Position numbers and translations under genes: made by a program. Below the pieces are notes generated by a model. It saw nothing but the letters and a program-made list of their open reading frames with translations, searched no databases and was not told the DNA's origin. A stretch of DNA of 64,000 nt from an uncultured Candidatus Saccharibacteria bacterium. GTDB taxonomy: Bacteria; Patescibacteriota; SICC01. The stretch is taken from NCBI GenBank assembly GCA_964476895.1, contig CAYZCS010000001.1, positions 1,351 to 65,350 on the forward strand. Direction: 5' to 3'. Below are positions 5,941-58,647 of this stretch, in pieces. Position 1 is the first letter of the stretch. Each line of letters starts with the position of its first letter.

Positions 5941-6537
5941 CTAGCCGGCTGCCTGGTTCCGCGATGCGACCGCGTCCCGGACCAGTCCGGTCAGCTCCCG
6001 GGCGGCCGTTTCCAGATCGTCGTTGATGACCTCCGCATCGAATTCGTGACGCGCCTTGAGTTCGATGGCGGCCGTCCGCAGGCGCTTCTCCATCTGTTCC
6101 GGCGTATCCGTTCCCCGCTCCCGGAGCCGTTTCTCGAGCTCGACATCGCTCGGCGGCGAGATGAAGACCAGCGTCGCCTCGGGAATGTTCCGGCGCACCT
6201 GGCGGGCACCCTGCACTTCGATCTCCAGGATGACGGAATCGCCGTCCTTGAGATGTCGCTCGACCTCGCCCCGGAGCGTGCCGTACTGATACCCGGCATA
6301 TTCCGCGTGCTCGACGAATTCCCCCGCGGCGATACGGCGGTCGAATTCTTCGGGTGACAGGTAGTAGTAATCGACTCCCTCCCGTTCCCCTTCCCGGCAC
6401 GGCCGTGTGGTCGCCGACACGGAGTAGGCGAGGTGCGGGATCCGCTCACGGATAATCCGGATCAACGTGCCCTTCCCGACGCCGGACGGGCCCGTCACGA
6501 CGATCAGTGCTCCACGCTGGTCTGCGGTCTTGCTCAT
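5941..6537 (-). CDS. gmk: guanylate kinase
   Basis: P-loop GPSGVGKGT and the ATTRPCREGEREGVDYYYLS signature. Confidence 0.9.
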   Translation of the reverse strand: MSKTADQRGALIVVTGPSGVGKGTLIRIIRERIPHLAYSVSATTRPCREGEREGVDYYYLSPEEFDRRIAAGEFVEHAEYAGYQYGTLRGEVERHLKDGDSVILEIEVQGARQVRRNIPEATLVFISPPSDVELEKRLRERGTDTPEQMEKRLRTAAIELKARHEFDAEVINDDLETAARELTGLVRDAVASRNQAAG

Positions 6538-9904: not shown

Positions 9905-10007
9905 GTGCCCGTGCGAAAGAATCCCTTGTCCTTCGCGTCGGTTTTCGACGGTGTCAGCTACCATCCATTCCATCATACGAGCGGACACGGACCTTCCGCA
10001 AGCGGCC

Positions 10008-21154: not shown

Positions 21155-22720
21155 TCACAGCTTCTCCGGCAGCTCGATCCCGACGGTCTCGCCGACCTGT
21201 TCCAGCACCAGCTTGGTAGCCTCGACGAGCCGGAGCCGCGCCGCGGTGAGCTCCTTGTCGTCCGAAACCACGCGGCACTGCTCGTAGAACTTGTGGAACG
21301 CGTCGGCCACGCCGAGCGCGTAGTGCGGCACCCGTTGGATCTGGTAGTCCTCCGCCGTCTGCCGGATGACCTCGGGAAACGCCGAGAGCTCCTGGACCAG
21401 CGCGAACTCCGCGGGCTCGACGAGCTTGCCGAGGTCGGCGTCCTTCTTCTTCGCGCCGCGGCCGGCCTGCCGAAGGATTCCCGCCACCCGCGCGTACGCG
21501 TACTTCAGGTAGTAGACGGGATTCTTCTGGCTCTGCTCCTTCGCCAGGTCGAGGTCGAAGTCCATGTGGGTGTCCCAGCCGCGCATCACGAAGAAAAAGC
21601 GCGCCACGTCGGACGGGATCTCGGCGAGCAGCTCGTCGAGCGCTACGTACGTGCCGGCCCGCTTGCTCATCTTCACTTCCTGGCCGCCGCGGGTCAGCCG
21701 GACGAGCTGCGTGACGAGGACCTGCAGCTTCCCGTCGAAGTGGTCCGCCTGACGGAGGAACTCGACGCCCGCCTCCATCCGCTTGATGTAGCCGTGATGG
21801 TCGGCGCCCCAGATGTCGATCGCCAGGTCGAGCTGCCGTTTCGCCAGTTTGTGGTAGTGGTAGGCGAGGTCGGCCGCGAAGTAGGTCAGCGCGCCATCAG
21901 ACTTCCGGAGCACGCGGTCCTTGTCGTCATCATGGTGAGTGGTCTTGAGCCAGAGCGCGCCGTCCTTCTCGTACGCCGCGTCGATCTTCTCGAAGCCGGC
22001 AAGTACGCGCTCGATCTCGCCGGTCTCGTGCAGCTCCTTCCGCTCCGAGAACCAATCGTCGAACCGGATCCCCATCCGCTCGATCGTCTTCCGGATCTCT
22101 TCCGTCATCAGCGCGGCAGCCTCCGCCCCGACTTCCGCCGCGGTCTTCGCGGTATCCACCTTGGTCTTCAGCTCCGCGACGTACTCGCCCTTGTAGGCGT
22201 CTTCCTCACCCCGGAGCGTGGCGCCGAGCTGTTCCACCTGGAAACCGGCGTCGTTCAGGTAGTACTCACGGCTGACCGTGTGCCCGGCCCGCGTCACCAC
22301 GTTCGCCAGGACATCACCGCCGTAACCGCCGCGGCCGTTACCGAGCGTAAGCGGACCGGTCGGATTCGCGGAGATGAACTCGACCTGGATCTTCCGGCCG
22401 GTCTCCGGGAGCCGCCCGAAGTCCTTGTCCGCTTCCAAGATCTCCGCGACCACGCCCTGCCACGCGGCCGGGCTCAACCGGAAGTTGAGGAACCCCGGAC
22501 CGGCGACCTCGACCGCGTTGAACATCTCCTCGGTCGAGAGCTTTTCCTGGAGCTGCTCGGCCAGGCTGCGCGGGTTCACGCCCCGCTTCTTGCCGAGCAC
22601 CATCGCCACGTTCGAGGCGTAGTCCCCATGCTCGGGCTGCTTCGGGCGCTCGACCGAGAAGTCGGCGTCTTCCGCCTCGGCGAGTTTCGTGAGCAGTGTA
22701 CGTATTTGTTGAGCAAGCAT
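21155..22720 (-). CDS. argS: arginine--tRNA ligase
   Basis: HIGH-region equivalent SANPTGPLTLGNGRGG and a class I ArgS C-terminal anticodon-binding region; start at the MLAQQIRTLL ATG, since the track ORF extends 206 codons upstream through non-coding sequence. Confidence 0.85.
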   Translation of the reverse strand: MLAQQIRTLLTKLAEAEDADFSVERPKQPEHGDYASNVAMVLGKKRGVNPRSLAEQLQEKLSTEEMFNAVEVAGPGFLNFRLSPAAWQGVVAEILEADKDFGRLPETGRKIQVEFISANPTGPLTLGNGRGGYGGDVLANVVTRAGHTVSREYYLNDAGFQVEQLGATLRGEEDAYKGEYVAELKTKVDTAKTAAEVGAEAAALMTEEIRKTIERMGIRFDDWFSERKELHETGEIERVLAGFEKIDAAYEKDGALWLKTTHHDDDKDRVLRKSDGALTYFAADLAYHYHKLAKRQLDLAIDIWGADHHGYIKRMEAGVEFLRQADHFDGKLQVLVTQLVRLTRGGQEVKMSKRAGTYVALDELLAEIPSDVARFFFVMRGWDTHMDFDLDLAKEQSQKNPVYYLKYAYARVAGILRQAGRGAKKKDADLGKLVEPAEFALVQELSAFPEVIRQTAEDYQIQRVPHYALGVADAFHKFYEQCRVVSDDKELTAARLRLVEATKLVLEQVGETVGIELPEKL

Positions 22721-22789
22721 AAGATTGATACCATTATCCGTCGTTCGCAGGTCCAGGTAAAACGTTCGTTCACAATTAAGGGAGGACCC

Positions 22790-22945
22790 ATGAGTTCCAG
22801 GAACAACGGCAGCCACAGCGCTGACGGCTTGGTGTTGGTCGCGCTCCTCGTCATCATCGTATCCGTAGCGTTTGCCGTATCCATGGCCGCGGACAGCGAC
22901 AGCGGCTCGATCCTGCCTCACTACGTCGTCGCCGTGCCAATCTGA
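22790..22945 (+). CDS. micro-ORF 1: single-TM small protein (51 aa)
   Basis: strong SD (AAGGGAGGA) 7 nt upstream of the ATG; hydrophobic core LVLVALLVIIVSVAFAV. Confidence 0.5.
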   Translation: MSSRNNGSHSADGLVLVALLVIIVSVAFAVSMAADSDSGSILPHYVVAVPI

Positions 22946-23002
22946 CCAACGTTCGTTCACAACCGACGGATCACCGGCAACAGCCGGAGAAAGGGATTTC
23001 CC

Positions 23003-23161
23003 ATGGACCGGAAAGACCACGGCAGCTTCACCGGCATGTCGCCGACCGTCGTGATCATCGGCATCGTCTGCTTCGTGATCCTCCTGATCGCCCTCGGCGT
23101 GGGCATCGAGGACCAGTACGGCACGCCACACGACCCGGCGCCTCCGGCGCAGACCCGGTAA
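23003..23161 (+). CDS. micro-ORF 2: single-TM small protein (52 aa)
   Basis: SD-like GGAGAAAGGGA upstream; TVVIIGIVCFVILLIALGVG helix; below the ORF-track cutoff. Confidence 0.5.
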   Translation: MDRKDHGSFTGMSPTVVIIGIVCFVILLIALGVGIEDQYGTPHDPAPPAQTR

Positions 23162-23182
23162 CCGCGCAACCAAGGAGATCCA

Positions 23183-23290
23183 ATGAACGAGAAAAGGGCG
23201 TTCGAAGCGCTCGGCTTTCTGCTCCTCATCGGGGGTGGTGTCATCTGCATCGGCATCGTCCTTCTGACAACCGCCGGTTGCGGTTCCTGA
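23183..23290 (+). CDS. micro-ORF 3: single-TM small protein (35 aa)
   Basis: SD AAGGAGA 6 nt upstream; LGFLLLIGGGVICIGIVLLTTAG helix; immediately followed by the T1 terminator. Confidence 0.45.
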   Translation: MNEKRAFEALGFLLLIGGGVICIGIVLLTTAGCGS

Positions 23291-23308
23291 CATCCCCACA
23301 CCGGCAAA

Positions 23309-23357
23309 CCCCTGACCCACCAACGTCCGCAAGGACATGGGTCAGGGGTTTCTATTT
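23309..23357 (+). terminator. structured intrinsic terminator, copy T1 of a 3-copy repeat
   Basis: outer stem CCCCTGACCCA/TGGGTCAGGGG, inner hairpin GTCC-GCAA-GGAC, then TTTCTATTT. Confidence 0.7.
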
Positions 23358-23387
23358 GCCTATCCGGAATTCAGGCATAATCGAGGC

Positions 23388-23837
23388 ATGAAGGTCATCG
23401 CGAAGAACCGGCGGGCCCGGCACGACTACATCCTCGAACAGACGTACGAGGCGGGCTTGGCGCTGACCGGCGCCGAGGTGAAGTCGATCAAGGCGAGCGA
23501 CATCTCGATCCAGGAAGCATACGTGATCATCCGCGGCGGCGAGGCGTACCTGCTCGGGGCGCACGTGAAGCCGTGGCACGGCGCCGACGGCGAACCCGAC
23601 CCTACCCGGACCCGGAAGCTCCTGCTCCACCGCCGCGAACTGGACAAGCTGGTCGGCGCGACCAAGGAAAAGGGCCGCACCCTCGTGCCGGTCACGGTCG
23701 GGCTCAGCAAAGGTCTGGTCAAGCTCGAGATCGCGCTCGCCCGCGGCAAGAAGATCCACGACAAACGCGAGACGCTCAAGCGCCGCCAGGCCGACCGCGA
23801 GGCCGCCCAAGCGGTCAAGCGTGCCACGAAAAGCTAG
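23388..23837 (+). CDS. smpB: SsrA-binding protein
   Basis: MKVIAKNRRARHDYILEQTYEAGLALTGAEVKS and the conserved SmpB core; SD GAGG 5 nt upstream. Confidence 0.9.
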   Translation: MKVIAKNRRARHDYILEQTYEAGLALTGAEVKSIKASDISIQEAYVIIRGGEAYLLGAHVKPWHGADGEPDPTRTRKLLLHRRELDKLVGATKEKGRTLVPVTVGLSKGLVKLEIALARGKKIHDKRETLKRRQADREAAQAVKRATKS

Positions 23838-23868
23838 TCCATTGACAAACTTCTGAGAATCCGTAGAC

Positions 23869-24339
23869 TTGGATATCGTGAGCCTACGATCCGCATCCCC
23901 CGACTCCGAACCGGGGTCGAGACCCGACCTCGACCTCGAACCTGCCGCCGAGACCGCGGCGGGAGGCGAAGCGTTCCCCGCGGAGCCAGGCATCCCCATC
24001 GAGCCAGCCGGCGAAGACAGCGGTGAATCGAGCCCTGACGCCGACATCGTCGCCCCGGAACCGCTTGGCAAACTGGATCCGGACAGTTTCCGCGGGCGGT
24101 CCGAGACCCGGGCCAGTGCGACGAGCGGCCCGCAGTTGGAGCGCCTACTGGAGACGTTCCCATCAGGAGTCGGGCGCTACTTCCGCGAACGCACGGATGC
24201 CCGGACCGGCAAGAAGGGGCCCGGGCCCCTTCCCCGTGCACCGCTCAGTGGCCGCGGCACAGACGCGATCATGCGGGTCAAGAAAGCCCGGAAATACCTG
24301 GAAGACCGGGCTACGCCACGCGACGAAGCGGATAAATAG
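23869..24339 (+). CDS. hypothetical acidic low-complexity protein
   Basis: ORF with Pro/Glu/Asp-rich composition; coding status uncertain. Confidence 0.3.
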   Translation: MDIVSLRSASPDSEPGSRPDLDLEPAAETAAGGEAFPAEPGIPIEPAGEDSGESSPDADIVAPEPLGKLDPDSFRGRSETRASATSGPQLERLLETFPSGVGRYFRERTDARTGKKGPGPLPRAPLSGRGTDAIMRVKKARKYLEDRATPRDEADK

Positions 24340-24955
24340 CGCCGTCGAACGGCTCATCCAGCCGGTACTGCCGCTGTTCCGCGGTCGTGCCGTCGAAGCG
24401 TAACGCGAGCGCGGTGTCGGGGCTCGGTGCCGTCGAGAGCATCAGCTCGCTATCCTCAAACCACTCGGAATCCCGGTCCAGCAGGTAGTACAGCTCGGGC
24501 GCGTTCGCCAGCACGAGCGGTTCCGCGGGATTACCCGGCAGGTCCATCCGGAGCATGCCCAGGCTCGTGAAGAAATCGGCTGCCGTTTCCGGCTCCGAAC
24601 TCATGCACCGCCGGGCGATCTCCCCTGCATCCAGCGGTTCCTCATAGACGGCGTACCAGCCCGGACCGCTGACTGCCTGGTCGAAGACGTCGCTCCACCG
24701 TTCGGGAACCGGCCGGTCATTGCGTCGGAACGGCACGAACCGGACCCGCACGCCGTGCTCCTCGAACCGCTCCAGGTCGCCGTCATGGAAGCGCCGCGGC
24801 AACCGGCTGATCGCCGTGATGTCGAGCACCCGGCTGGCCCGCTCGAGTTCCCGTGCCTCCAGCGATTCCACGAAGTAGCGCTCCTGCACCGGTTGGAGCC
24901 CGGTGAGCTCCTCGTCCGGATCGAATCCGTGGTCTGGCGTAGGTTCGTCGATCAT
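24311..24955 (-). CDS. hypothetical protein
   Basis: start at MIDEPTPDHG; the longer track ORF has a basic non-coding-looking extension. Confidence 0.45.
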   Translation of the reverse strand: MIDEPTPDHGFDPDEELTGLQPVQERYFVESLEARELERASRVLDITAISRLPRRFHDGDLERFEEHGVRVRFVPFRRNDRPVPERWSDVFDQAVSGPGWYAVYEEPLDAGEIARRCMSSEPETAADFFTSLGMLRMDLPGNPAEPLVLANAPELYYLLDRDSEWFEDSELMLSTAPSPDTALALRFDGTTAEQRQYRLDEPFDGAIYPLRRVA

Positions 24956-25145
24956 GGTGTTCCTTGGTTCCGCAAAGTGACGGCGTGCGGGTGACACCCC
25001 TTGATACCGCGCTTTGGAAAAGTCGTCAACCGCTGTGCGGGGCGCGCGGCGGCAAGCTGGAAAATCTCCGGACCGCCCGGGCCGCGGGCCAGGAATCTCT
25101 TTTTTGGGAACATCAGCCTTGCGGCGCAATCCCAAATTCCTTACA

Positions 25146-25463
25146 ATGCAGTCACTTTTTAGCCGTATCGGTAGCTACTTAACAACCAGGGAACAGGCAC
25201 GAAAGGAAATCATCGTGGGAGACGAACGGAGCCCCTCCGAAATAGAAGCAGACAAGAGGAAACAGGAACGATGGTACAGGGAGCACATGAGGGAGGAGCA
25301 AAGAAGAAGAGACAGGGGAGAACCGACCCATCAAGAGATATGGGAACAGAAACAACGCAAAGAGTCCATAAAAGCGTTCGTGCAAGTCGGGAGCGGGGTG
25401 GTGGCAATCTTGATCATCATCGGTTCCATCGTGTGGGCCGGCGTGGAGCTGTTCACCGGTTGA
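25146..25463 (+). CDS. hypothetical protein with a charged N-region and a C-terminal TM helix
   Basis: MQSLFSRIG...VQVGSGVVAILIIIGSIVWAGV; lies in a lower-GC patch and is followed by terminator T2. Confidence 0.5.
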   Translation: MQSLFSRIGSYLTTREQARKEIIVGDERSPSEIEADKRKQERWYREHMREEQRRRDRGEPTHQEIWEQKQRKESIKAFVQVGSGVVAILIIIGSIVWAGVELFTG

Positions 25464-25525
25464 TTGACACTATGCGCGTCACCGCAGAAGTAATCCGCGT
25501 CCGAAGCCCTCGCCGTCAATCAATA

Positions 25526-25579
25526 CCCCCCTGACCCACCAACGGTTCTTACGGACCAAGGGTCAGGGGGTTTCATTTT
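25526..25579 (+). terminator. structured intrinsic terminator, copy T2
   Basis: CCCCCTGACCCACC...inner GGTTC-TTAC-GGACC...GGTCAGGGGG then TTTCATTTTG. Confidence 0.7.
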
Positions 25580-25684
25580 GGCAGATTGTCGTTGTCCGCC
25601 TGCAGACGACGCTGTACAATGGCTGACTCGACAGTCAGGTAGCTTCATTAACAATCCGCAAACCACCAATGGGGAGAGATACAC

Positions 25685-25996
25685 ATGGGCCTTGAGGCCG
25701 GTAACGAGCACCACTACACTGGGGGGCCGGAACAGTGGCAACCCTCACCTTCACCCAGCATTCCCGCGGTGTTCTTCGGAATCATATTCCTGGCGGGTTT
25801 CTTTTTCTTCTTTCTGATGCTCACGTCGGCGCTCCTGATCCATATCCTCGGCGAAATCACGCCGCTGAGCAGCGAAGGCATTCAAGGATCGGTCGGGAGC
25901 ATCATCCTCGTCGTGAACGGGATCCTGGCCGGTATCGGAGCACTGTATATCGGAATAACCTACGCAGCAGAAGAAAGAGGCAAAAGCTCTGCATAA
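25685..25996 (+). CDS. small membrane protein (two predicted TM helices)
   Basis: FFGIIFLAGFFFFFLML and IILVVNGILAGIGALYIGI helices; followed by T3. Confidence 0.5.
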   Translation: MGLEAGNEHHYTGGPEQWQPSPSPSIPAVFFGIIFLAGFFFFFLMLTSALLIHILGEITPLSSEGIQGSVGSIILVVNGILAGIGALYIGITYAAEERGKSSA

Positions 25997-26004
25997 GAAC
26001 ACTT

Positions 26005-26057
26005 CCCCTGACCCACCAACGGTTCTTACGAACCACGGGTCAGGGGGTTCTTTTTGC
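26005..26057 (+). terminator. structured intrinsic terminator, copy T3
   Basis: CCCCTGACCCACCAACGGTTCTTACGAACCACGGGTCAGGGGG then TTCTTTTTG. Confidence 0.7.
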
Positions 26058-26101
26058 AAGGCGAGTCTCGGCCGAACCCGGAATTCAGGCGTAATCGAAC
26101 C

Positions 26102-26185
26102 ATGAACGCCGAGAACCGGCGCGACCGGAAGGACTATCTGCTTGAGCAGACGTTCGAGGCGGGTATCGCGCCGTCGAACGGCCTA
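26102..26185 (+). pseudogene. smpB 5' fragment: diverged duplicate of the smpB upstream region plus the first ~27 codons
   Basis: CCGGAATTCAGGCGTAATCGAACCATGAACGCCGAGAACCGGCGCGACCGGAAGGACTAT... aligns at about 75% nt identity with 23362-23470; encodes MNAENRRDRKDYLLEQTFEAGIA (SmpB: MKVIAKNRRARHDYILEQTYEAGLA) and then runs into the purN 3' end on the opposite strand. Confidence 0.6.
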
Positions 26186-26848
26186 CCCGCGGTGCGGAGT
26201 ACGCGCGCCGGCGACCGTGCAGATCTCGGCGAGGGCGCGGGTCAGCGCCTTGTGCTCCGCCGGCTTGATCCGGGCGTAGAGCTTCTCGACCGTGTCGCCG
26301 TCTTTCACGTCCACCATCGCCCGCTGGAACACCGGCCCCACACCGCCGTCCGGCGTGTGCGCGAAGACGCTCGAACCCGCCCACTTTTGTCCGGCCGCCA
26401 GCACCGCCTGGATCGCGTTCTCGCCAGCCAGGCCCAGGCACGGGTCGGCGAAGTTGCCGTCCGGCAGCTTGAACTTGTGATAGCCCGGGTCGGGGATGAG
26501 TCCCGGATGCACCGAGAGCACCCGCCACGGGAAGTACTTATGGAAGGCTTCGGAGAGGTCGTACGTCCAGCCCGCCAGGACGACCAGGTCCGGGGCATAG
26601 CGCTGGAGCTTGTGGGCCAGGTCCTCCTCGTAGTGCGCGCGGGGCTTCCCGTGCGCGGCGTAGTCCGCGTGGTCCAGCACGACGGTCGGCACGTCCGCCT
26701 CGCGGGCACGCACCAGGCCGTAGGCGCTCTCCTTGTCCGACGCCACCGCCACGACCTGGCCGTCGAACCGCTCGGCCTGGCCGTCCAGCATGGCCTGCAG
26801 GTTGGAGCCGCCGCTTTTGTTCGAGATCAGTACCGCGATGCGTTTCAT
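26183..26848 (-). CDS. purN: phosphoribosylglycinamide formyltransferase
   Basis: MKRIAVLISNKSGGSNLQA N-terminus and the formyl-transferase HPGLIP region. Confidence 0.8.
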   Translation of the reverse strand: MKRIAVLISNKSGGSNLQAMLDGQAERFDGQVVAVASDKESAYGLVRAREADVPTVVLDHADYAAHGKPRAHYEEDLAHKLQRYAPDLVVLAGWTYDLSEAFHKYFPWRVLSVHPGLIPDPGYHKFKLPDGNFADPCLGLAGENAIQAVLAAGQKWAGSSVFAHTPDGGVGPVFQRAMVDVKDGDTVEKLYARIKPAEHKALTRALAEICTVAGARTPHRG

Positions 26849-29386: not shown

Positions 29387-29820
29387 GGGGATGCACCGGA
29401 TTCGACGGTGGCGTACCTTGACAGGTTGCCGGCCGAGGACGAACGCTCACCTCGCTAATCACGCGTTCAACGGCATTACAACTGCCAACTTCAAAGAGAA
29501 GCTTAGCGGTGTTGTCGCTTCCGCCCGGGAAAGCATTGCTTCCCTGAGCGATGCGTTCGCCCCGCGACAGCTCTCTCCCATCCGGGCGTAATACCCCGGA
29601 TCGTGCCCGCGCGAGCGCCCGGCTCGCACGGTAGCGCGTCATACTCCGGGCTCATCCGGATTCCCTAGTCTCAGGAAATTCGGAGACACGTTTGAGACTG
29701 GGTAGGCTGCGTTTCGTCCGCTTTCGAGCAGCCTGCTGACAGCAAAAAGTGGACTATGCCGGTAGATCGCCTTTCAACGGTCTCCATCGGACGGGGGTTC
29801 GACTCCCCCCATCTCCACCA
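29387..29820 (+). ncRNA. ssrA: tmRNA (transfer-messenger RNA)
   Basis: 5' GGGGATGCACCGGATTCGACGG pairs with 3' ...GGACGGGGGTTCGACTCCCCCCATCTCCACCA (tRNA-like domain, T-arm, CCA encoded); the tag frame is not resolvable with confidence. Confidence 0.8.
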
Positions 29821-30064
29821 AGCGGCTCTCTGAGCTCACCGGCAATACGCTTGCCGTAAGAAAAATAGCTTTGGAAAGAGATTGGATCGAGAATCACTAC
29901 TGCTCGCAAGAAACGCGATACTTAGGAGCAGCTAGAAAGGAGTTGCCAGTACCTATGCCGGTTTCATTGAGCAAGAATGGCGGCGACTCACTGTTGCAAC
30001 ATTAAGAGACTGACAAAAAGGCCCTGGCATAAAGCTCGAAGATATTTTCAAAGTCTTGTAGCAT

Positions 30065-32023
30065 CTACACGCTAGTCACCTGCTCAACCAGATCCTCTGC
30101 TGTGGCTTCTTTCGATATTTTCTTTTTTTGAAATTCAAGTTGTTTTAGCACAAAATCTAACCGCAAATTCACTTCTGTAAAAATTTCACTCCAGGTTTTT
30201 ACGTAAATTTCATAGTTGTCGACACTCTGAATAAGTGATTTCTTGCCATGAACTTTGGCACTTTTTTGCTCTCGTTTTATATAACCCGAGGTGTCAAATT
30301 TGTTCCCCACTAGATAAAACTCCCACTTCATATTTGGAGCATTAAATTCACTCTGCTCAAGAATGACCCCCATGTACTTTTTAACCTGATCCAGCTCTTT
30401 GGCTCCGAGCCTAACCGTAGGCTTTTTGAGTTCCACCACGATGTTATGAATCTCATCATTTTCTTTTAGCTGTCGACAAAGAAATATATCCATTTGCTTA
30501 CGCTTGTCTGGATGGTCAATTTTGACGTTCTTCTTTTCGTCTCGTAAAAGATATAAGTACCGACGAAGAGCCTCTTCAAATACTGGCTCTGCCTCTGTGA
30601 CTAGATGGAATCTTTCCCCAAAAATCCAATAAGACGAAGCTACGATTGTTTGAACATGCGGCACTTCTTTAGCTCTAACATTGTCGTCAAAAACAAGTTT
30701 CTTTAGAGCCTGCAAGTCTTTGTTTCGTCTCTCAAGCATTCGAGTCGTCGCGACCATGCGTGACATATTTGTACTTTGCAGAAGCTCAGCCAATTCCCTG
30801 CGCTCGCTTCTATCAAGATCTACTATTTCCTCAATAATTTTTAGTAGATTTTCCGTTTCATTAGTGTCGATTAAGAGATTCAATAAGCCAACAAAGGTCT
30901 TTTTTTGCTCAATGTTGAGTGTAGAAAAAATTTTAGGCTCGAGCTTGTAGAGGTCCTTAACTAAAACCTGAAGATGCTCTTTTCTAATTTGGTCAAATTC
31001 AGACTCAAGCTCCGGAAAGACCTTTTCGCTCTCATACTCTTTTACTAGATTGTCTGCATTGGTTTTTAGGAAAGGCTTTCTCAACTTTCTCAAATACCCC
31101 GAGAGTTCCTTCTGAAGAAACTTAAACTCAGGACTTGAACGATCAACCCCTATCAAAGTAGATTGATTTTTCTTTTCCTTTCCAAAGCCAAAGTTATCAA
31201 AGAACGAGGATTTGATGTAAACACTGTGATAAAAATCATCACCTTTTCTGTTCAAAGTAGTAAATTCTTTCCACTTTTCTTTATCTTTGGAGTCAATGTA
31301 GTAATACTGCGACCACTCCTTATTTAGACTTTCCTTCCATCGAACGTATGAGATATGAAACTTTGTATTGCTCTCTTCGTGAGTGAACTCTGTTTCCTTT
31401 CTGTCTCCAATCAATGCTGTGTAATCCAGCTCTTCTCCATTAATAAGAATCTTGAACGCTTTACTTTTATTTAGCTCTAAAAACCATCCAAACTCTCTTA
31501 CGAGGAAAGGTTGTAACTCTTGCTCGATCTGCGTTCTCGTAAAATCAAATATTGACGAAAGTATTACTTCTGTCCCTGGTTTTTCAGTAGTGATTTTTGG
31601 AGTCGTCGGATTAAAGAGATCGAGTCGTTTTGAATCAGCCTTAATCCGATACTTATGCCTCTTGCCAGCCTTCTTGTACACCGTTTCCCATGAAGCTTCA
31701 TTAGCAAACTTAAAGAAAGTTAGTCTGCCTACACCAGTTCGTCCGTGCAGTTGAGATTGATTGAAAGTTTTTTCGGCAAATTTCTCGGAATCATGAAATC
31801 TCCGAAATTTTTCTTCGAGCTTTGAGTGATCAATTCCATATCCATTGTCACGAATAGTGATAGAAGAAAGGTTGCCTATCGCATTACTATCAAATTCCAG
31901 TTCGACTTTGGTTGCATTGGCATCAAAGCCATTCCAAATGTACTCAGCAAGGGATCGATTTCTATCATAATTATCAAGAACCTGCTTGATACCCACCGAG
32001 GTAATTCGAACGCTTTTGCTCAT
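30065..32023 (-). CDS. GHKL-family ATPase (MORC/HATPase_c_3-like N-domain) with a C-terminal PD-(D/E)xK-like nuclease module
   Basis: Bergerat-fold boxes: N-box EYIWNGFDA, G1 IRDNGYGI, G2 HGRTGVGRL; C-terminal MDIFL...IVVELKKP (D...ExK pattern); 652 aa; 38% GC. Confidence 0.65.
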   Translation of the reverse strand: MSKSVRITSVGIKQVLDNYDRNRSLAEYIWNGFDANATKVELEFDSNAIGNLSSITIRDNGYGIDHSKLEEKFRRFHDSEKFAEKTFNQSQLHGRTGVGRLTFFKFANEASWETVYKKAGKRHKYRIKADSKRLDLFNPTTPKITTEKPGTEVILSSIFDFTRTQIEQELQPFLVREFGWFLELNKSKAFKILINGEELDYTALIGDRKETEFTHEESNTKFHISYVRWKESLNKEWSQYYYIDSKDKEKWKEFTTLNRKGDDFYHSVYIKSSFFDNFGFGKEKKNQSTLIGVDRSSPEFKFLQKELSGYLRKLRKPFLKTNADNLVKEYESEKVFPELESEFDQIRKEHLQVLVKDLYKLEPKIFSTLNIEQKKTFVGLLNLLIDTNETENLLKIIEEIVDLDRSERRELAELLQSTNMSRMVATTRMLERRNKDLQALKKLVFDDNVRAKEVPHVQTIVASSYWIFGERFHLVTEAEPVFEEALRRYLYLLRDEKKNVKIDHPDKRKQMDIFLCRQLKENDEIHNIVVELKKPTVRLGAKELDQVKKYMGVILEQSEFNAPNMKWEFYLVGNKFDTSGYIKREQKSAKVHGKKSLIQSVDNYEIYVKTWSEIFTEVNLRLDFVLKQLEFQKKKISKEATAEDLVEQVTSV

Positions 32024-32060
32024 ACGAGTATCTTACCAGTCAGACTTTTGCGATTTTCTT

Positions 32061-33080
32061 TCATGATTCAAATTTCCCAATCTCGGCATACCAATCAATT
32101 GTATCTACCAAATCTAGATCGCACGGCACAGGATTATCCTCGATAAATTTAGCCTCAAAATACTGGTTCCAGTAAGCTTCGGCTGATCGCCGAGGATGGT
32201 TTGCAAGCCACGAATCAAAGTAGTCGAAGTGAACGTCGTAGTGGTGTGTATGCATGAAGTCGTCCCACGTACCTTGCAACTGGTCAGCATCAGCACCTGG
32301 TCGGGCAATAATCTCGAACTGCTCAAATTCACGTTTTTCTTTTGAGCCCCAGCCCTTTTTTAGCTGCTCCATCGCTGCTACATCCGAATCTGGCGCGCGA
32401 TAACCAAAAACCGTTACCCATGCCGCGGATTTTAGTGCTTCCGTTAGACGCAGCCACTCGCTGGCGATAAACGGATTTTCCTCATAATTCTTCTCGTTGA
32501 CCGGATACAACAAGGGCACAGGACTGAAAGTTTTCTTGCAAACACTACAATTATTCCCAACTGTTCCGGCAATCCGATCTTTCTCGCATATCCCAACCAT
32601 GACATTGCCATGAAGAAACGCTAGCGGCGGCCGCGACAAAGTCCTCCGGCCACTTCTTGCGTAAGCTTGCATTAAAAGCGGATCCCAATTGAAGCTGGCA
32701 ATTAAGTCCTTATCTCGAAGTGACAAAATAAGGTGATCGTAGATTGTCGGATCATCTGGAATCTGGAAGCGCTCGTAATATTCATGAATGGCTTCATCTA
32801 TCTTGTCTGCAATCTCCGCTTTCGACCGATCCAACCGTAGATCTGAATAGGCAGACTCAAAATCCTCAACGTCGCCTAAGCCAGCCTCTTCCAGCAGAGG
32901 AGCAACAGTTTCTATTTTCGATAGACCTTTCATGTCAGTCGGTCGCTTCCCGTTCCTGTCTCCATTAGGCAGAGCAGCAATACTTGCGCCGGCGCCGAGA
33001 ATTACAACATGTGGCTTACCGGCAAAAGGCTTTTCAACCTCTTGCTCTTTAGTAACTTCAGAACCAGATGACGCTGCCAT
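32061..33080 (-). CDS. SIR2-like (sirtuin/DHS-like NAD-binding fold) protein
   Basis: VVILGAGASIA (GAGxS), FNWDPLL (TTNYD-like), LAFLHGN (catalytic HG), Cys-x12-Cys-x2-Cys, VTVFGYRAPDSD; 37 bp upstream of the GHKL gene on the same strand. Confidence 0.65.
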   Translation of the reverse strand: MAASSGSEVTKEQEVEKPFAGKPHVVILGAGASIAALPNGDRNGKRPTDMKGLSKIETVAPLLEEAGLGDVEDFESAYSDLRLDRSKAEIADKIDEAIHEYYERFQIPDDPTIYDHLILSLRDKDLIASFNWDPLLMQAYARSGRRTLSRPPLAFLHGNVMVGICEKDRIAGTVGNNCSVCKKTFSPVPLLYPVNEKNYEENPFIASEWLRLTEALKSAAWVTVFGYRAPDSDVAAMEQLKKGWGSKEKREFEQFEIIARPGADADQLQGTWDDFMHTHHYDVHFDYFDSWLANHPRRSAEAYWNQYFEAKFIEDNPVPCDLDLVDTIDWYAEIGKFES

Positions 33081-37313: not shown

Positions 37314-38102
37314 TCACTTAATCCCTTTCAACCACCGTACCGTCGAGGCATACAGCTTTTCCGCTACGCCGTCTTCCTCGAAGCAGTGCCCCGCCCCTCG
37401 GATGACCTCATGAGCGCTCTTCCCCTGCGCGTTCTCCGCATACCGGCGACTCCCGCGCAGCACGCCGTTTCCAGCGGTAATGACCTTGAGTGGGTACGCG
37501 ATGTCCTTTCCGAGCTCTTCCCACGGAATGTTCGCATCCACGTCGACCATCCGTTTACCGAACAGGTAATCGACATACCCACGTATCCGGTACGCTTTCA
37601 GGCGCGGCTCGTACTTACTGCGCGAGCGGAGCAGCGCGAGCTTGTAGCTCGGGTCCCACAGCACCGCACCGTCCAAATCCTTGTCCTTCGACAGCAGGAT
37701 CGTCGTGCCGCCGTAGCTGTGCCCGACGGCGAAGATCTTCCGTTTGCCATGCTTCCGGAAGTACGCCACGACCGCGTCGAAGTCGGCGGCATGCGTCTTC
37801 AGCGTGGCTTGGCGGAGCGGCCGGCTGTCGTACAGGTAGTAGCGAAACGACGAAAAGCCCTGCTGCTCCAGGTACCGCGCGCCGTTGTAGAACTGGTGCT
37901 CGTTCGGATCGCCGGTCAGCCCGTGTACGAAGATTACCAGCGGCTTGGTCAGCGGTCCGCGCAGGAACCCCTTGACCGACTTCCCGCCGCCGACCGGCAT
38001 TCGGACGATTCTCTCCTTGGCTGCCATGCGCCCATCGTACTGCACCGGCTGTATAGCTGCTTTCATTAAGAGTAAATCTGGCATATAAAAGAAGTCGCAC
38101 AT
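37314..38102 (-). CDS. alpha/beta-hydrolase
   Basis: GHSYGG nucleophile elbow; start uncertain (several in-frame Met; MAAKER at ~38027 plausible). Confidence 0.6.
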   Translation of the reverse strand: MCDFFYMPDLLLMKAAIQPVQYDGRMAAKERIVRMPVGGGKSVKGFLRGPLTKPLVIFVHGLTGDPNEHQFYNGARYLEQQGFSSFRYYLYDSRPLRQATLKTHAADFDAVVAYFRKHGKRKIFAVGHSYGGTTILLSKDKDLDGAVLWDPSYKLALLRSRSKYEPRLKAYRIRGYVDYLFGKRMVDVDANIPWEELGKDIAYPLKVITAGNGVLRGSRRYAENAQGKSAHEVIRGAGHCFEEDGVAEKLYASTVRWLKGIK

Positions 38103-41562: not shown

Positions 41563-41741
41563 GGGCCTCCTTGGTCATGTTACTGCGAGACCATTGTACG
41601 CCCATGCTCAGAGACGTGGCGGTAGACCTCACTCGAAAGCATCAGCGGTGCGAGGCCTTCAGCGATATGCTACAGTTAACTGCTTTCGACGCAGAAGGCA
41701 TTAACAGCACGCTTTCCATGATCCCGACAGAAAGGGGAAAC

Positions 41742-42239
41742 GTGATCACTGGTCGTAGAATACTGACACTGCTGCTCATCGTCGCAGTGGGGACCGTCGG
41801 CTTCTTCGTGGGAGGGAATCTCCGCGAGAACGACGACGCGGACTCCGCCACGCGGACGAGCGGCGCGAGCCAGCCACTCATTCCGCCAAGTTGGGCTGAC
41901 TGCTCGATCATCGTCGTAACACGTCAACAGTTCAGTCCGGTCGTGGACGCGCCCTTCTGCAAGCAATCGACTTTCCTGCTCCGGAGGGCGCTGGTGCCGA
42001 GCCAAGAGGCCCGGCCTAACGAGTGCCGGCTTGATGTGGACTTTTACGACCTCAGACGACGGTTTTTCGATCGCGATGACGGGCCTCGGCTTGCGAAATA
42101 CCGCGATCGCTTCTCGATCTCGTGCAGGAAGATCCTGTTCGTCATACACAACCCCAGCGAGATCGCGTCGTACGAGCACGACGTAGTCAGCAGCGGGGTC
42201 TTGGAGCCCGGCCAAAAGGGCCACAACCTCCATCCATAG
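41742..42239 (+). CDS. secreted/lipoprotein-like hypothetical protein (paralog A)
   Basis: GTG start after the GAAAGGGGAAAC SD-like sequence; signal-anchor ILTLLLIVAVGTVGFFVGG; shares ADC(S/T)I(I/V)VVT...FCKQS...ECRLD blocks with 43943..44557. Confidence 0.55.
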   Translation: MITGRRILTLLLIVAVGTVGFFVGGNLRENDDADSATRTSGASQPLIPPSWADCSIIVVTRQQFSPVVDAPFCKQSTFLLRRALVPSQEARPNECRLDVDFYDLRRRFFDRDDGPRLAKYRDRFSISCRKILFVIHNPSEIASYEHDVVSSGVLEPGQKGHNLHP

Positions 42240-42387
42240 CTGCCGCACCGCACCGTCCCCGCCCGGAACCACTCCTCATCAAGGAGCCGGGCGGGGACTT
42301 TTGCTGTACCCAAAGAGTAAGATGCGGATAGCCGCGACGGGAAAGCCCGACGCCACGGTCGAAGTCTGATCTGCCCCAGCGGTCCGC

Positions 42388-43942: not shown

Positions 43943-44557
43943 GTGGGCAACTCTCGAAAGTTGATGGTACTCGTCGCGGTCGCGGTCGTCGCGGTTTTCG
44001 CGGCCAGCTGCGGCGGGGACGACGGCAAGGTCACCGTCGTGACCGAGACGGTCACGACCGATGAGCCGGTGCAGCTCCCGAAGGTCACGGCCGAGCAGAA
44101 GCAGGCTCAGGCACGAGCAGTGAAGCAGGTGCGGGACTTGGACGCCGACTGCACCATCGTCGTCGTCACGCTCGCGGACCAACGCGCCAAGATCCAGCGG
44201 CCGTTCTTCTGCAAGCAGTCCGTGCTGCGCGTAAAGAAGAACCTGCCCCTCTCGCCGTTCGCGGCGGAGGATGAGTGCCGGCTCGACTACGAGCCGACGA
44301 CACTCTACTCAGAGGGCAAGGGCTACTGGCAGACGGTCATCGTCCTGAGCCAGTCCTGGCCACGCTTCACGCCGAAGTGCAAGCGCATCCGCTTCGTGGT
44401 GTTCGCCACGCAAGATGAGGATGTCGTCGACTACGCGCGTGAGGCACCGCTCACACGGGGGAAGCTCAAGCCGGGCCAAAAGGCCTACTACACCCCCGAC
44501 CCCGGTCTGCGGGAGTACCAAAGGGAGTACGGCAAGTTCAGCCAGCACGCCCAGTAA
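43943..44557 (+). CDS. lipoprotein (paralog B of 41742..42239)
   Basis: lipobox VFAASCGG; conserved 5' leader AAGGCATTAACA(A/G)CAC...CCCGACAG(G)AA(A/G)G shared with paralog A. Confidence 0.6.
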   Translation: MGNSRKLMVLVAVAVVAVFAASCGGDDGKVTVVTETVTTDEPVQLPKVTAEQKQAQARAVKQVRDLDADCTIVVVTLADQRAKIQRPFFCKQSVLRVKKNLPLSPFAAEDECRLDYEPTTLYSEGKGYWQTVIVLSQSWPRFTPKCKRIRFVVFATQDEDVVDYAREAPLTRGKLKPGQKAYYTPDPGLREYQREYGKFSQHAQ

Positions 44558-44893
44558 TCCTGTAGTCGCCCGCGTCACACCCGTCCCCGTCCGGAACCAC
44601 TTCTTTTTTAGAAGCCGGACGGGGACCTTTGCTATATCGACTTACGAGTACGTCTTTGCGCTTTATCTGCCTTCCGTCAACAGCTACCTCTTGCCCAGTT
44701 TGAGTCCGCTAGCATATCATGCATTATGGCCTTTACAAAGCGATTTATTTACGATACGATTCGAGGCCGATTAGCACGTTAACATCCGCACCGGAGAGCT
44801 CAGCGAGCGTACACCGTGCGCCTGATGAGCTCTCCGTTGCTGCTGCGGCCGAGCACCACTACACGACATCCAGCAGCCGAAAGGAAAGTCATC

Positions 44894-54019: not shown

Positions 54020-55279
54020 ATGTCCCATCAATCATCCCGTTCACCGCGGCGTAATCGCCGCACATTCAATTCGAATAAGCCCGGCCGGCCGAACCGGTCC
54101 GGCAATTTCCGGCGCGGCGGTTCTCCGTCACGCGGCGGAGGCGGCCGCGGCCGCGCCAAGGCGCAGATCGACCCACGACGGTTCGTAAACGCCGCCACGA
54201 TCCCGGCCGAGATCGTGCCCTACGACCCCCACCACTCGTTCGACGATTTCCCCTTCGAGCCGAAACTGAAGGAAGCGATCCGGGCCAAGGGCTTCGAACA
54301 TCCGACCGCGATCCAGGACCAGGCCATTCCCCACGTGCTGGCCGGCAAGGACCTGGTCGGCCTCGCCAACACCGGCACCGGCAAGACGGCGGGCTTCGTG
54401 CTGCCGATCATCCACCGGCTGGCCACCAAGCAATCCAAGATGGCCTTGATCGTGGCGCCGACCCGCGAGCTCGCCAAGCAGATCAACGACGAGTTCCTCG
54501 ACTTCGGCAAGCGGTTCGGCTATTCCAGCGCGGTGTGCGTGGGCGGCATGCGCGAGCAGCCGCAGATCTCCGCGCTCTACCGGAAACCACAGGTGGTGAT
54601 CGGTACGCCGGGCCGTCTCAAGGACTTCGTGAACCAGAAGCACCTGCGGCTCGACCAGTGCGATACCTTCGTGCTCGACGAAGCCGACCGCATGCTCGAC
54701 ATGGGCTTCGTCCACGACATGAAGTTCCTGATGCAGCACCTCCCCACCCACCGGCAATCGCTCTGTTTCTCCGCGACGATCACGCCGGAAGTCGAGCGGA
54801 TCATCGCCGAGCTGCTCCGCGACCCGGTGACCGTCTCGGTCCGTTCGACCGTCACCAGCGAGCATATCGAACAGGAAGTGATCCATGCCGACAGCAGGGA
54901 AGAGAAGCTCGACCATCTGGTGCAGATGCTCTCGAAGCCCGACTTCGGACGGGTGCTGGTATTCGGCGAGACGAAGTTCGGCGTGAAGCGCCTGGCGGAG
55001 AAGCTGAACAAGGCCGGCATCGAGGCTGCCGAGATCCATGGCAACCGCAACCAGAGCCAGCGCCAGCGGGCCCTCGATTCGTTCAAGCGCGGACGGGTGC
55101 GGGTCCTGGTCGCTACCGACGTGGCGGCGCGCGGCATCGACGTCGACGACGTCAGCCACGTGATCAATTACGACACGCCGGGCTCATACGAGGACTACGT
55201 CCACCGGATCGGCCGTACCGGCCGGGCCGGCAAGGGCGGTTCCGCGATCACGTTCGTGCCTCGGTCAGTCGCGCGATAG
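54020..55279 (+). CDS. DEAD-box ATP-dependent RNA helicase
   Basis: Q-motif, ANTGTGKT (Walker A), VLDEADRML (DEAD), SAT and HRIGRTGRAG motifs; basic N-terminal Arg/Gly tail. Confidence 0.9.
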   Translation: MSHQSSRSPRRNRRTFNSNKPGRPNRSGNFRRGGSPSRGGGGRGRAKAQIDPRRFVNAATIPAEIVPYDPHHSFDDFPFEPKLKEAIRAKGFEHPTAIQDQAIPHVLAGKDLVGLANTGTGKTAGFVLPIIHRLATKQSKMALIVAPTRELAKQINDEFLDFGKRFGYSSAVCVGGMREQPQISALYRKPQVVIGTPGRLKDFVNQKHLRLDQCDTFVLDEADRMLDMGFVHDMKFLMQHLPTHRQSLCFSATITPEVERIIAELLRDPVTVSVRSTVTSEHIEQEVIHADSREEKLDHLVQMLSKPDFGRVLVFGETKFGVKRLAEKLNKAGIEAAEIHGNRNQSQRQRALDSFKRGRVRVLVATDVAARGIDVDDVSHVINYDTPGSYEDYVHRIGRTGRAGKGGSAITFVPRSVAR

Positions 55280-57802: not shown

Positions 57803-58584
57803 CAGGCCGCCGTCTTCTTGCGCCCGCGTTCGAGACTCTTCCGGAGCGTCGACATCAGGTCGGTCACGGCCGTCGGCTCAGGTTCCTTGCCTTTCGTCTC
57901 AACCTTCTTGCCCTTGGCTTTCTTCGCGATCACTCCCCGCAGCTCGCGCCGGTAGTCGTCCTTGAAGTCCCTCGGGTCGAAGTGCTCGGTCAGCTGGTCG
58001 ATCAACGTAAGCGCCATGTCGAGCTCCCGTTTGTCGGCCTGCTTCGCGTCCGGCACGTCGAGACCGACGGGCTTTCGGATCTCGTCGCTGTACCGGAGCT
58101 GCTCCAACACGATCACGTTGCCGGTCGGCTTGATCACACCGAGATGCTCCTTGTTACGCAGCACGAACTCCGCCACACCGACCTTCTTCGAGCGGCGGAG
58201 CGCCTCGCGCAGCAGCGCGTACGGCTTGGCGGCACCCTTGTCCGGTTCCAAATAGTACGGCCGTTCCGCATAAATCAGGTCAATCTCTCCCTCGTCGGTG
58301 AACTCGGCGATGTTGATCGTCTTCGTCCGCTTCACGTTCGCCTTCTTGAACTCCTCGTCCGTAAGCACGATGAAGTCTCCTTTTTGGTATTCGTACCCCC
58401 GAACGATCTGGTCGAACGGGACCTCCTTGCCATCCGCCCGGGCCACCTTCAGGTAGCGTATCGGTGAAAGATCGCCTTTCCGGAGGTACCGGAACTTAAG
58501 GTCGCCGTCACCCGCGGCCGAATACATCCGCACTGGGATGTTCACTAGCCCGAAGCTGAGGGCGCCGGTCCACATCGCTCGCAT
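57802..58584 (-). CDS. ku: Ku protein (NHEJ)
   Basis: MRAMWTGALSFGLVNIPVRMY Ku core; its stop overlaps the ligD start (ATGA). Confidence 0.85.
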   Translation of the reverse strand: MRAMWTGALSFGLVNIPVRMYSAAGDGDLKFRYLRKGDLSPIRYLKVARADGKEVPFDQIVRGYEYQKGDFIVLTDEEFKKANVKRTKTINIAEFTDEGEIDLIYAERPYYLEPDKGAAKPYALLREALRRSKKVGVAEFVLRNKEHLGVIKPTGNVIVLEQLRYSDEIRKPVGLDVPDAKQADKRELDMALTLIDQLTEHFDPRDFKDDYRRELRGVIAKKAKGKKVETKGKEPEPTAVTDLMSTLRKSLERGRKKTAA

Positions 58585-58647
58585 GCCCACAGCATACAAG
58601 GATACGACCGCCTTGCTTTGGCAATAGTCACAATCGTGGCGCCGGCG

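Follow-up and report, generated by a model that had tools for sequence, protein, structure and literature searches.

Three look-alike hairpins between argS and purN of an uncultured Saccharibacteria bacterium: probable intrinsic terminators spread by local segmental duplication

Why does one hairpin module stand three times within 2.7 kb of the same genome? The question is raised by a 64-kb stretch of DNA (64,000 nucleotides, hereafter the window) from an uncultured Candidatus Saccharibacteria bacterium (contig CAYZCS010000001.1 of assembly GCA_964476895.1), where three hairpins followed by U-rich tracts, T1 (23309-23348), T2 (25528-25569) and T3 (26005-26046), lie on the + strand in the region between argS and purN. 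An original prediction, made from the letters alone, had seen in them a mobile or duplicating regulatory cassette, or a structured RNA element beyond a simple terminator. We think that T1, T2 and T3 are probably paralogous Rho-independent (intrinsic) terminators which were spread by local segmental duplication.

The three hairpins and their U-tracts were found where the original prediction had put them. T1 reads CCCCTGACCCA-CCAAC-GTCC-GCAA-GGAC-A-TGGGTCAGGGG and then UUUCUAUUU, its U-tract (23349-23357). T2 and T3 have the same 5' arm and CCAAC, followed by the inner hairpins GGTTC-TTAC-GGACC (with one G.U pair) and GGTTC-TTAC-GAACC respectively; their U-tracts are at 25571-25579 within UUUCAUUUU and at 26048-26055 within UUCUUUUU. 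The outer stem common to the three copies is 10 bp long (CCCCTGACCC/GGGTCAGGGG) and not 11 bp as first proposed, because the eleventh pair exists in T1 only (A-T), the same position being A.A in T2 and A.C in T3. On the 5' side an unpaired ACCAAC is identical in all of them. The inner hairpins are those that had been listed, and the GNRA tetraloop (GCAA) is indeed confined to T1.

The folding check that had been suggested gave a clear answer. The predicted minimum free energy was -34.8, -29.0 and -28.8 kcal/mol for T1, T2 and T3, with z-scores of -6.3, -3.6 and -4.8, and none of the 200 shuffled sequences was as stable. The similarity among the copies is also beyond chance: the 11-mer of the outer arm, allowing up to one mismatch, was counted 7 times where 1.2 occurrences were expected, a number reached in one of 100 shuffles, and BLAST aligned T2 with T3 at E=5e-15 and the block around T1 with that around T3 at E=3e-17. 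One more match to the 11-mer, at 59938, gave no fold and was discarded as chance.

Regarding their position, the three hairpins are intergenic and co-oriented (+) with a small membrane-protein open reading frame (ORF) just upstream, 9-65 nt past its stop codon: T1 is 19 nt past p3, T2 is 65 nt past orf82 and T3 is 9 nt past orf103. Each of them closes, as had been claimed, a transcription unit of small membrane proteins (p1-p3, orf82 and orf103). The U-rich tracts begin 0-1 nt 3' of the stem, a promoter scan found a sigma70-like promoter downstream of each hairpin, and RpoD-type sigma factors are encoded within the window. As far as sequence can tell, T1-T3 appear to have all the marks of intrinsic terminators, namely a stable stem, a U-tract and an intergenic, co-oriented position. 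They are the same as the canonical Rho-independent 'L-shaped' terminators in the GC-rich hairpin, in the immediate 7-9-nt U-tract, in lying between genes past a stop codon and in the folding energy (-29 to -35 kcal/mol). However, the stem of T is long (around 15 bp) and is split into two tiers by an asymmetric internal loop, and there are three near-identical copies within those 2.7 kb.

The RNA would thus consist of an outer helix of 10-11 bp, rich in GC, an internal loop of 5-6 nt on the 5' side (ACCAAC), an inner helix of 4-5 bp, a tetraloop and an 8-9-nt U-rich tract. Hairpin and U-tract would release the RNA polymerase just beyond the small membrane-protein ORF and the terminator would insulate the next promoter, starting 20-45 nt downstream, which after T1 is the promoter of smpB.

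The copies differ mainly in the inner helix. We counted its pairs by hand, because both the MAFFT and the covariance-model alignments put the inner helix of T1, and of a fourth copy (T4) found in the related assembly GCA_040902515.1, out of register. The pairs are G-C, U-A, C-G and C-G in T1 and T4, and G-C, G-C, U-A, U-A and C-G in T3, with a U.G wobble replacing the second U-A in T2. In total, therefore, one pair has changed on both sides, with the wobble intermediate present, and one pair has been inserted. The claim that the helix changes its sequence between T1 and T2/T3 and keeps its pairing stands; the pairing has evidently been maintained, yet a plain terminator needs exactly that, and purifying selection on termination would be what keeps the helices paired. 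The state of T1 and T4 looks ancestral and the state of T2 and T3 looks derived. T2 and T3 differ at only 2 of 45 positions (96% identity over 45 nt), although their ORFs cannot be aligned, and they share the derived state; therefore their likeness would be younger than the split between T1 and T3. It probably comes from gene conversion or recent copying, that is, T2 and T3 would also have been homogenised, or T2 would have been copied recently.

Such changes could equally be read as the sign of a structured RNA that does more than terminate, for instance a protein-binding 3' untranslated region (UTR) or a processing signal acting through the unpaired ACCA(A)C loop, which is ACCAAC in T1-T3 and ACCGAC in T4. 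Actually, a second and independent family in the window, S, has the same two-tier architecture: GTCCCCGYCCGG, an AACCA bulge on the 5' side, CTYCT, a loop, AGRAG, CCGGRCGGGGAC and then a U-tract. Its members S1 (42255-42298, +) and S2 (44583-44626, +) fold at -36.6 and -30.3 kcal/mol and differ by two compensatory pairs, and a search with a two-tier descriptor in around 200 kb, on both strands, returned only the T and S families. Nevertheless, every one of these features is also expected of a plain terminator, the copies are very few (4 of T and 3 of S, all in two related genomes) and the conservation of the ACCAAC loop is not significant at a background identity of around 80%. The terminal loops (GCAA, TTAC, TAAC) and the 3' bulge are variable. 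Among the 4227 covariance models of Rfam 15 there was no match on the T elements at the gathering thresholds, nor any at E<=5 over 22700-26250, conservation was not found outside a narrow clade, and the covariation is what terminator pairing gives. We hold it very unlikely that T, or S, is an RNA of this kind, and this part of the original prediction was not supported.

S1 and S2 follow paralogous ORFs (41571-42239 and 43943-44557) whose proteins are 32% identical. The orthologue of S2 in L171, a contig of GCA_040902515.1, lies at 6434-6477 (-), is 98% identical and stands there without the ORF that S2 follows in the window.

How, then, were the T hairpins multiplied? The homology between T1 and T3 is not limited to the hairpin but extends over about 160 nt, from the terminator through the smpB promoter into the gene as far as codon 22. 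Identical positions amount to 17/17 in the outer 5' arm and bulge, 10/11 in the 3' arm, 7/12 in the inner hairpin, 12/15 in the spacer (with a 16-nt indel), 24/27 from the promoter to the ATG and 52/67 in the coding part, which also has a 6-nt deletion; upstream of the hairpin the similarity is random. On the T1 side there are a promoter and an intact smpB gene (23364-23837, +), with the -10 hexamer CATAAT at 23376-81, the coding sequence at 23388-23837 and a Pfam SmpB match of 6.1e-52. On the T3 side, the segment 26078-26171 (+), aligned to 23364-23463, is a dead copy of the promoter and the 5' end of the gene, smpB', with its ATG at 26102 and around 22 codons including the 6-nt deletion. Its -10 hexamer has decayed to CGTAAT (26090-95), with loss of the -11A, against CATAAT on the T1 side, it encodes DRKDY where 13 of the 13 SmpB homologues carry ARH[DE]Y, D and K replacing the invariant A and H, and it terminates against the stop codon of purN. 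The original prediction had placed an smpB start after both T1 and T3. The first is followed by the intact gene, but what follows T3 reads as a truncated and decayed pseudogene fragment of 22 codons, and not as a second gene.

The smpB promoter is peculiar in its closeness to the gene. In four genomes the -10 hexamer (CATAAT or TACAAT) stands exactly 6 nt 5' of the ATG, at 23376-23390 in the window and at ~9990-10003, ~9987-10003 and ~1186-1199 in the relatives' loci L030, L032 and L036 respectively. No conserved Shine-Dalgarno sequence precedes smpB in these four genomes; GAGG occurs only in the 6-nt spacer of the window, too near the ATG. This suggests that the smpB mRNA may be leaderless. 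A strong terminator just upstream would make sense there.

T2 and T3, for their part, end two units arranged in tandem, each of them made of a promoter, a 5' UTR, a small membrane-protein ORF and a hairpin. Unit U_A (25119-25579, +) has the promoter TTGCGG-17-TACAAT (25119-25147), the 5' UTR motif GGTAGCTACTTAACAACC, orf82 (25215-25463), T2 and the U-tract, and unit U_B (25592-26055, +) has the promoter TTGTCC-17-TACAAT (25592-25620), the 5' UTR, orf103 (25685-25996), T3 and the U-tract. U_B, that is orf103 with T3, is homologous from the promoter to the U-tract with a unit of orf129 and T4 in GCA_040902515.1 (L171/L104). T4 reads CCCCTGACCCA-CCGAC-GTCC-TAAC-GGAC-AC-GGGTCAGGGG-GUUCUUUU, folds at -31.0 kcal/mol, lies 40 nt past the stop codon of orf129 and has the unpaired loop ACCGAC. 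The products of orf103 and orf129 (L171 10001-10390) match in BLASTP at E=8e-6, a similarity reached in none of 1000 shuffles; the comparisons of orf82 with orf129 (35 of 1000 shuffles) and of p3 with orf82 (5 of 1000) are suggestive only. Neither orf103 nor orf129 had any homologue beyond itself among 5.8 billion clustered proteins, in which no donor of the extra block described below was identified either. Judged by these comparisons, orf103 and orf129 seem to be a fast-evolving, lineage-specific family of small membrane-protein genes.

A motif GGTAGCTnnTTAACAAyC lies between the promoter and the start codon in the 5' UTRs of orf82 (25170-25187), orf103 (25646-25664) and orf129 (L171 9956-9973).

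The genes shared by L171 and the window are 83-94% identical. In L171 the orf129-T4 unit is about 6 kb from lysA, and the counterpart locus in the window (~37.9 kb) has no T. At this locus an alpha/beta-hydrolase gene of L171 (9704-9901) is cut after around 35 codons, exactly where the orf129-T4 region starts; the gene of the window is intact (37314-38102, 262 aa), without T there. The 3' flank of T4 (CCGGGATTTTCAGG) was tried as a homologue of the T1/T3 flank and rejected, as it was not significant in the shuffle test. GCA_040902515.1 is the same organism as the one carrying locus L036, or very nearly so, because the smpB contig of L036 and the orf129 contig L172 come from one sequencing run and L171 carries the gene order of L036.

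The comparison with the relatives delimits the DNA that is extra in the window. The nearest relatives of the window smpB are Patescibacteria metagenome-assembled genomes (MAGs). L030 (SmpB 88% identical), L032 (80%) and L039 (76%) have argS (-), smpB (+), one or two short ORFs, an orf156-like one included, and purN (-), and L036 (SmpB 88%) has argS (-), a 52-aa homologue of p2, an unrelated terminator, smpB, orf156, a homologue of orf214 (-) and purN (-). By BLAST, L036 is collinear with the window save for extra window DNA at 22776-23002 (p1), at 23166-23372 (p3 and T1) and at 25034-26192. The block that bears T2 and T3 is absent from the smpB locus of the relatives, and its GC content is 56% versus 66-69% in the flanks. 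Between the T1 and T3 blocks, orf156 (23869-24339, +) and orf214 (24311-24955, -), neither of them with a Pfam match, are collinear with L036 1182-2726. The segment of p3 and T1, on the other hand, replaces the terminator that L036 has upstream of smpB. This other terminator folds at -28.6 kcal/mol (z -8.2) and its sequence is unrelated to T; a non-homologous terminator of similar strength stands in the same place, which suggests that the function was conserved and the sequence was replaced.

The extra block is bracketed by two copies of the purN 3' end. The left one (25005-25093, -) repeats, in decayed form and with indels, the last ~23 codons and the downstream flank; it aligns to L036 2795-2849 and to window 26164-26246 with a score that none of 300 shuffles reached, and its translation resembles the PurN C-terminus. 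The right one (26164-26246) belongs to the functional purN (26183-26848, -; Pfam Formyl_trans_N 4.7e-30). From the comparison with L036, the true bounds of the extra block are ~25034/25094 and 26163/26192. At the right junction the smpB codons 23-25 (ATCGCGC in the relatives) resemble the flank downstream of purN (ACCGCGC in L036 and in the left copy), and the window reads TATCGCGCC. Extra DNA flanked by a shortened copy of the smpB 5' part and by a displaced purN 3' copy in decay resembles the partial gene duplications that are left by segmental duplication or by integration into the 3'-end of a gene (attL/attR-like footprints). However, the usual identical core repeat is missing (the sole perfect repeat, of 15 nt, does not bracket the block), no integrase was found and the block holds just two tiny ORF units.

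This perfect direct repeat of 15 nt, GCGCCGTCGAACGGC, is itself a small hairpin and occurs at 24338-24352, at the orf156 stop and the orf214 3' end, and at 26169-26183, where smpB' meets the purN stop. Chance, a remnant of a second copy since deleted, or gene conversion could each account for it. We rejected it as the target-site duplication of a 1.8-kb insert, because L036 shows that orf214 is ancestral.

The argS-purN region is probably a hypervariable spot, remodelled by segmental duplications on a local scale and by illegitimate recombination. T1 and T3 would stem from the duplication of a block with the terminator, the promoter and the 5' end of smpB, whose copy on the T3 side later decayed; a unit of promoter, 5' UTR, small ORF and terminator would have been duplicated in tandem to give T2 and T3; and the segment bearing T2 and T3 would lie inside the duplicated purN 3' end. 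As to their order, a tandem duplication may have spanned the DNA between the terminator and the purN 3' end, after which the second copy would have lost the smpB 3' part, orf156 and orf214; this reproduces the order of the relics, and extra steps are needed to place the two U units. By the other route a fragment would have been inserted into the purN 3' end. Under both routes the three hairpins arose as paralogues through passive copying. The original prediction had named a simple recent tandem duplication as a case that would count against it, and this is largely what we found, except that the duplication is old and diverged (around 81% identity in the flanks) and not recent.

The window also encodes, at 55265-58599 (-), Ku and a full LigD with phosphoesterase, ligase and primase-polymerase domains, that is, non-homologous end joining in a small Patescibacteria genome. 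Therefore end-joining repair would be a plausible source of the illegitimate junctions near smpB.

A different explanation is that the hairpin, or the whole unit of promoter, small ORF and hairpin, moves or recombines by itself, as a cassette or as a DNA-level recombination site or hotspot like REP/MITE or attC, at which the adjoining genes would turn over. The homology of T1 and T2 with the other copies starts sharply at the base of the hairpin and that of T2 and T3 also stops right past the U-tract, the U unit stands at different loci in two close relatives, its region in L171 begins exactly at the truncation of the alpha/beta-hydrolase gene, and the S hairpin was kept in L171 at 98% identity though the ORF that precedes it in the window is absent there. 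All this would suit a cassette, but the copy number does not. We searched the 64-kb window and around 86 kb of the relatives' DNA (150 kb) with blastn-short and with a covariance model built from T1-T4, to which T1 scored 73.5 bits, and found T1-T4 alone: three copies in 2.7 kb, none in the window's other ~61 kb and one in the 20 kb of the relative. A 12-nt match in L032 was a coincidence within a coding sequence. Patterns with both outer arms and the CCAAC/CCNAC bulge found nothing related, except T4, in the species genomes of GTDB (185,579 genomes) and in the JGI metagenomes. The relaxed pattern, with the two 10-nt arms only, matched at least 119 loci in the genomes, which among the matches listed were unrelated palindromes except T4; a relaxed pattern for the metagenomes gave 12 matches, all unrelated; the arms-only scan of viral sequences (IMG/VR) gave 29 unrelated palindromes and nothing related. 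The extra block had no match in plasmid or phage collections. No dispersed family was found in these searches, which added only T4 to the three known copies.

The means of mobility are not seen either. Among the ORFs of at least 120 aa in the window, Pfam revealed no integrase, transposase, RAYT or Y1 transposase, and there are no target-site duplications or direct repeats beside the T hairpins. The integron attC reading was rejected by inspection, since CACCAAC misfits RYYYAAC and has no GTTRRRY partner; moreover, U_A and U_B have each their own -35/-10 promoter, unlike the promoterless attC cassettes, and no integrase was found in the window. The window likewise lacks what a REP/MITE-like element should have, as the copies are 3 within 2.7 kb, with no target-site duplication and no cognate transposase. 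Finally, the useless smpB fragment in the T1/T3 copy marks a passive segmental duplication. Thus, we consider self-mobility unlikely: the module has been duplicated, as the original prediction said, but T1 and T3 were copied within a longer block with the dead smpB fragment, and the segment bearing T2 and T3 is bracketed by the decayed purN duplicate.

Other repeats are instructive in this respect. REP/BIME, Correia/NEMIS and paired uptake sequences are palindromic intergenic repeats that are able to terminate transcription and mark rearrangement points, and they have tens to thousands of dispersed copies and a cognate transposase or an uptake function. Compared with them on these general grounds, T shows no dispersal, no transposase and no uptake function. 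A closer parallel is TRIT, the terminator motif of Mycobacterium tuberculosis, with 147 dispersed copies, mostly bidirectional and at around -8 from the stop codon (Gardner et al. 2011, PMC3152330), for which recognition by a factor has been speculated. TRIT and T are alike in being lineage-restricted terminators with sequence as well as structure conserved among the copies of one genome. Nevertheless, T has 3 clustered copies (and one in a relative), a unidirectional U-tract and a position 9-65 nt past the stop, and it does not reach the high copy number of TRIT. The T elements are narrowly distributed, with none found outside this narrow clade, and nothing suggests that they are RNAs of a novel kind or are mobile by themselves.

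Several points weigh against terminators that were spread by segmental duplication. Termination itself is deduced from the anatomy of the hairpins. The simple tandem-duplication models need several additional deletions. The homology of T1 and T2 with the other copies begins with the very first base of the hairpin, and this sharp boundary, with the 96% identity of T2 and T3 next to unalignable ORFs, also fits copying of the hairpin only. The outer stem and bulge of T1 and T3 are identical at 27 of 28 positions and the flanks at 88 of 109, a small gap, which could be due to gene conversion instead of selection; the choice between these two as the cause of the kept pairing is itself deduced. A modest number of further copies is also possible outside the window and the ~86 kb of relatives' DNA. 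A bolder idea is that the clade uses a few sequence-conserved two-tier terminators (T and S), with a long GC helix, an unpaired ACCA(A)C on its 5' side and a short inner hairpin. They would outlast the adjoining genes, as suggested by S2, kept in a relative that lacks its ORF, and by T1 and T2, of which the other copies have the hairpin only. A factor could recognise them, or they could be preferred breakpoints or landing pads where tiny genes for membrane proteins are born, duplicated and moved. We give it a low probability; the 15-nt repeat, the sharp boundaries at the hairpin base and the S family keep such a factor-recognised or recombinogenic class of terminators alive as a small chance.

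An artefact of metagenome assembly, in which a chimeric join of strain variants created smpB' and the extra terminators, is scarcely credible. In its favour, all of the window belongs to one MAG contig, and the sole cluster that contains its SmpB lists a single NCBI contig, of 78,989 bp; the GC content of the extra block differs from that of its flanks and there is the perfect 15-nt repeat at one junction. However, this repeat is below the k-mer size of assemblers, divergence and indels mark both the purN remnant and smpB', unlike a strain-level chimera, and T4 with its unit was found independently in a further assembly and in two from Logan.

If T1-T3 are indeed terminators copied with their surroundings, some caution is called for in the search for new RNAs: repeated hairpins that covary may be terminators carried by segmental duplication, and in this case the footprints by which such duplication can be recognised are the dead smpB 5' end and the decayed purN 3' end. 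The argS-smpB-purN interval looks like a hotspot for the gain, duplication and loss of tiny orphan membrane-protein genes in a reduced Patescibacteria genome. Lineage-specific terminator designs, if present, could aid the annotation of transcription units in uncultured bacteria of the candidate phyla radiation (CPR).

The operon closed by T1 consists of p1 (22790-22945), p2 (23003-23161) and p3 (23183-23290), all on the + strand, single-pass membrane ORFs with no Pfam match. The leader AACGTTCGTTCACAA is common to p1 (22761-22775) and p2 (22948-22962) and L036 has p2 alone, which therefore points to a tandem duplication of a small ORF upstream of smpB.

Two more observations concern the neighbourhood of the transfer-messenger RNA (tmRNA) gene. 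A block of low GC content (~29830-33000, 36-46% versus 62% in the window) starts right after this gene and encodes a 652-aa HATPase_c_3 protein (30065-32023, -). Its appearance is that of an island at ssrA, but neither an integrase nor a repeat of the tmRNA 3'-end was found. The tmRNA gene itself (29387-29820) was missed by ARAGORN and is a full-length Rfam match of 151.8 bits, with 434 nt against the 374 positions of the model.

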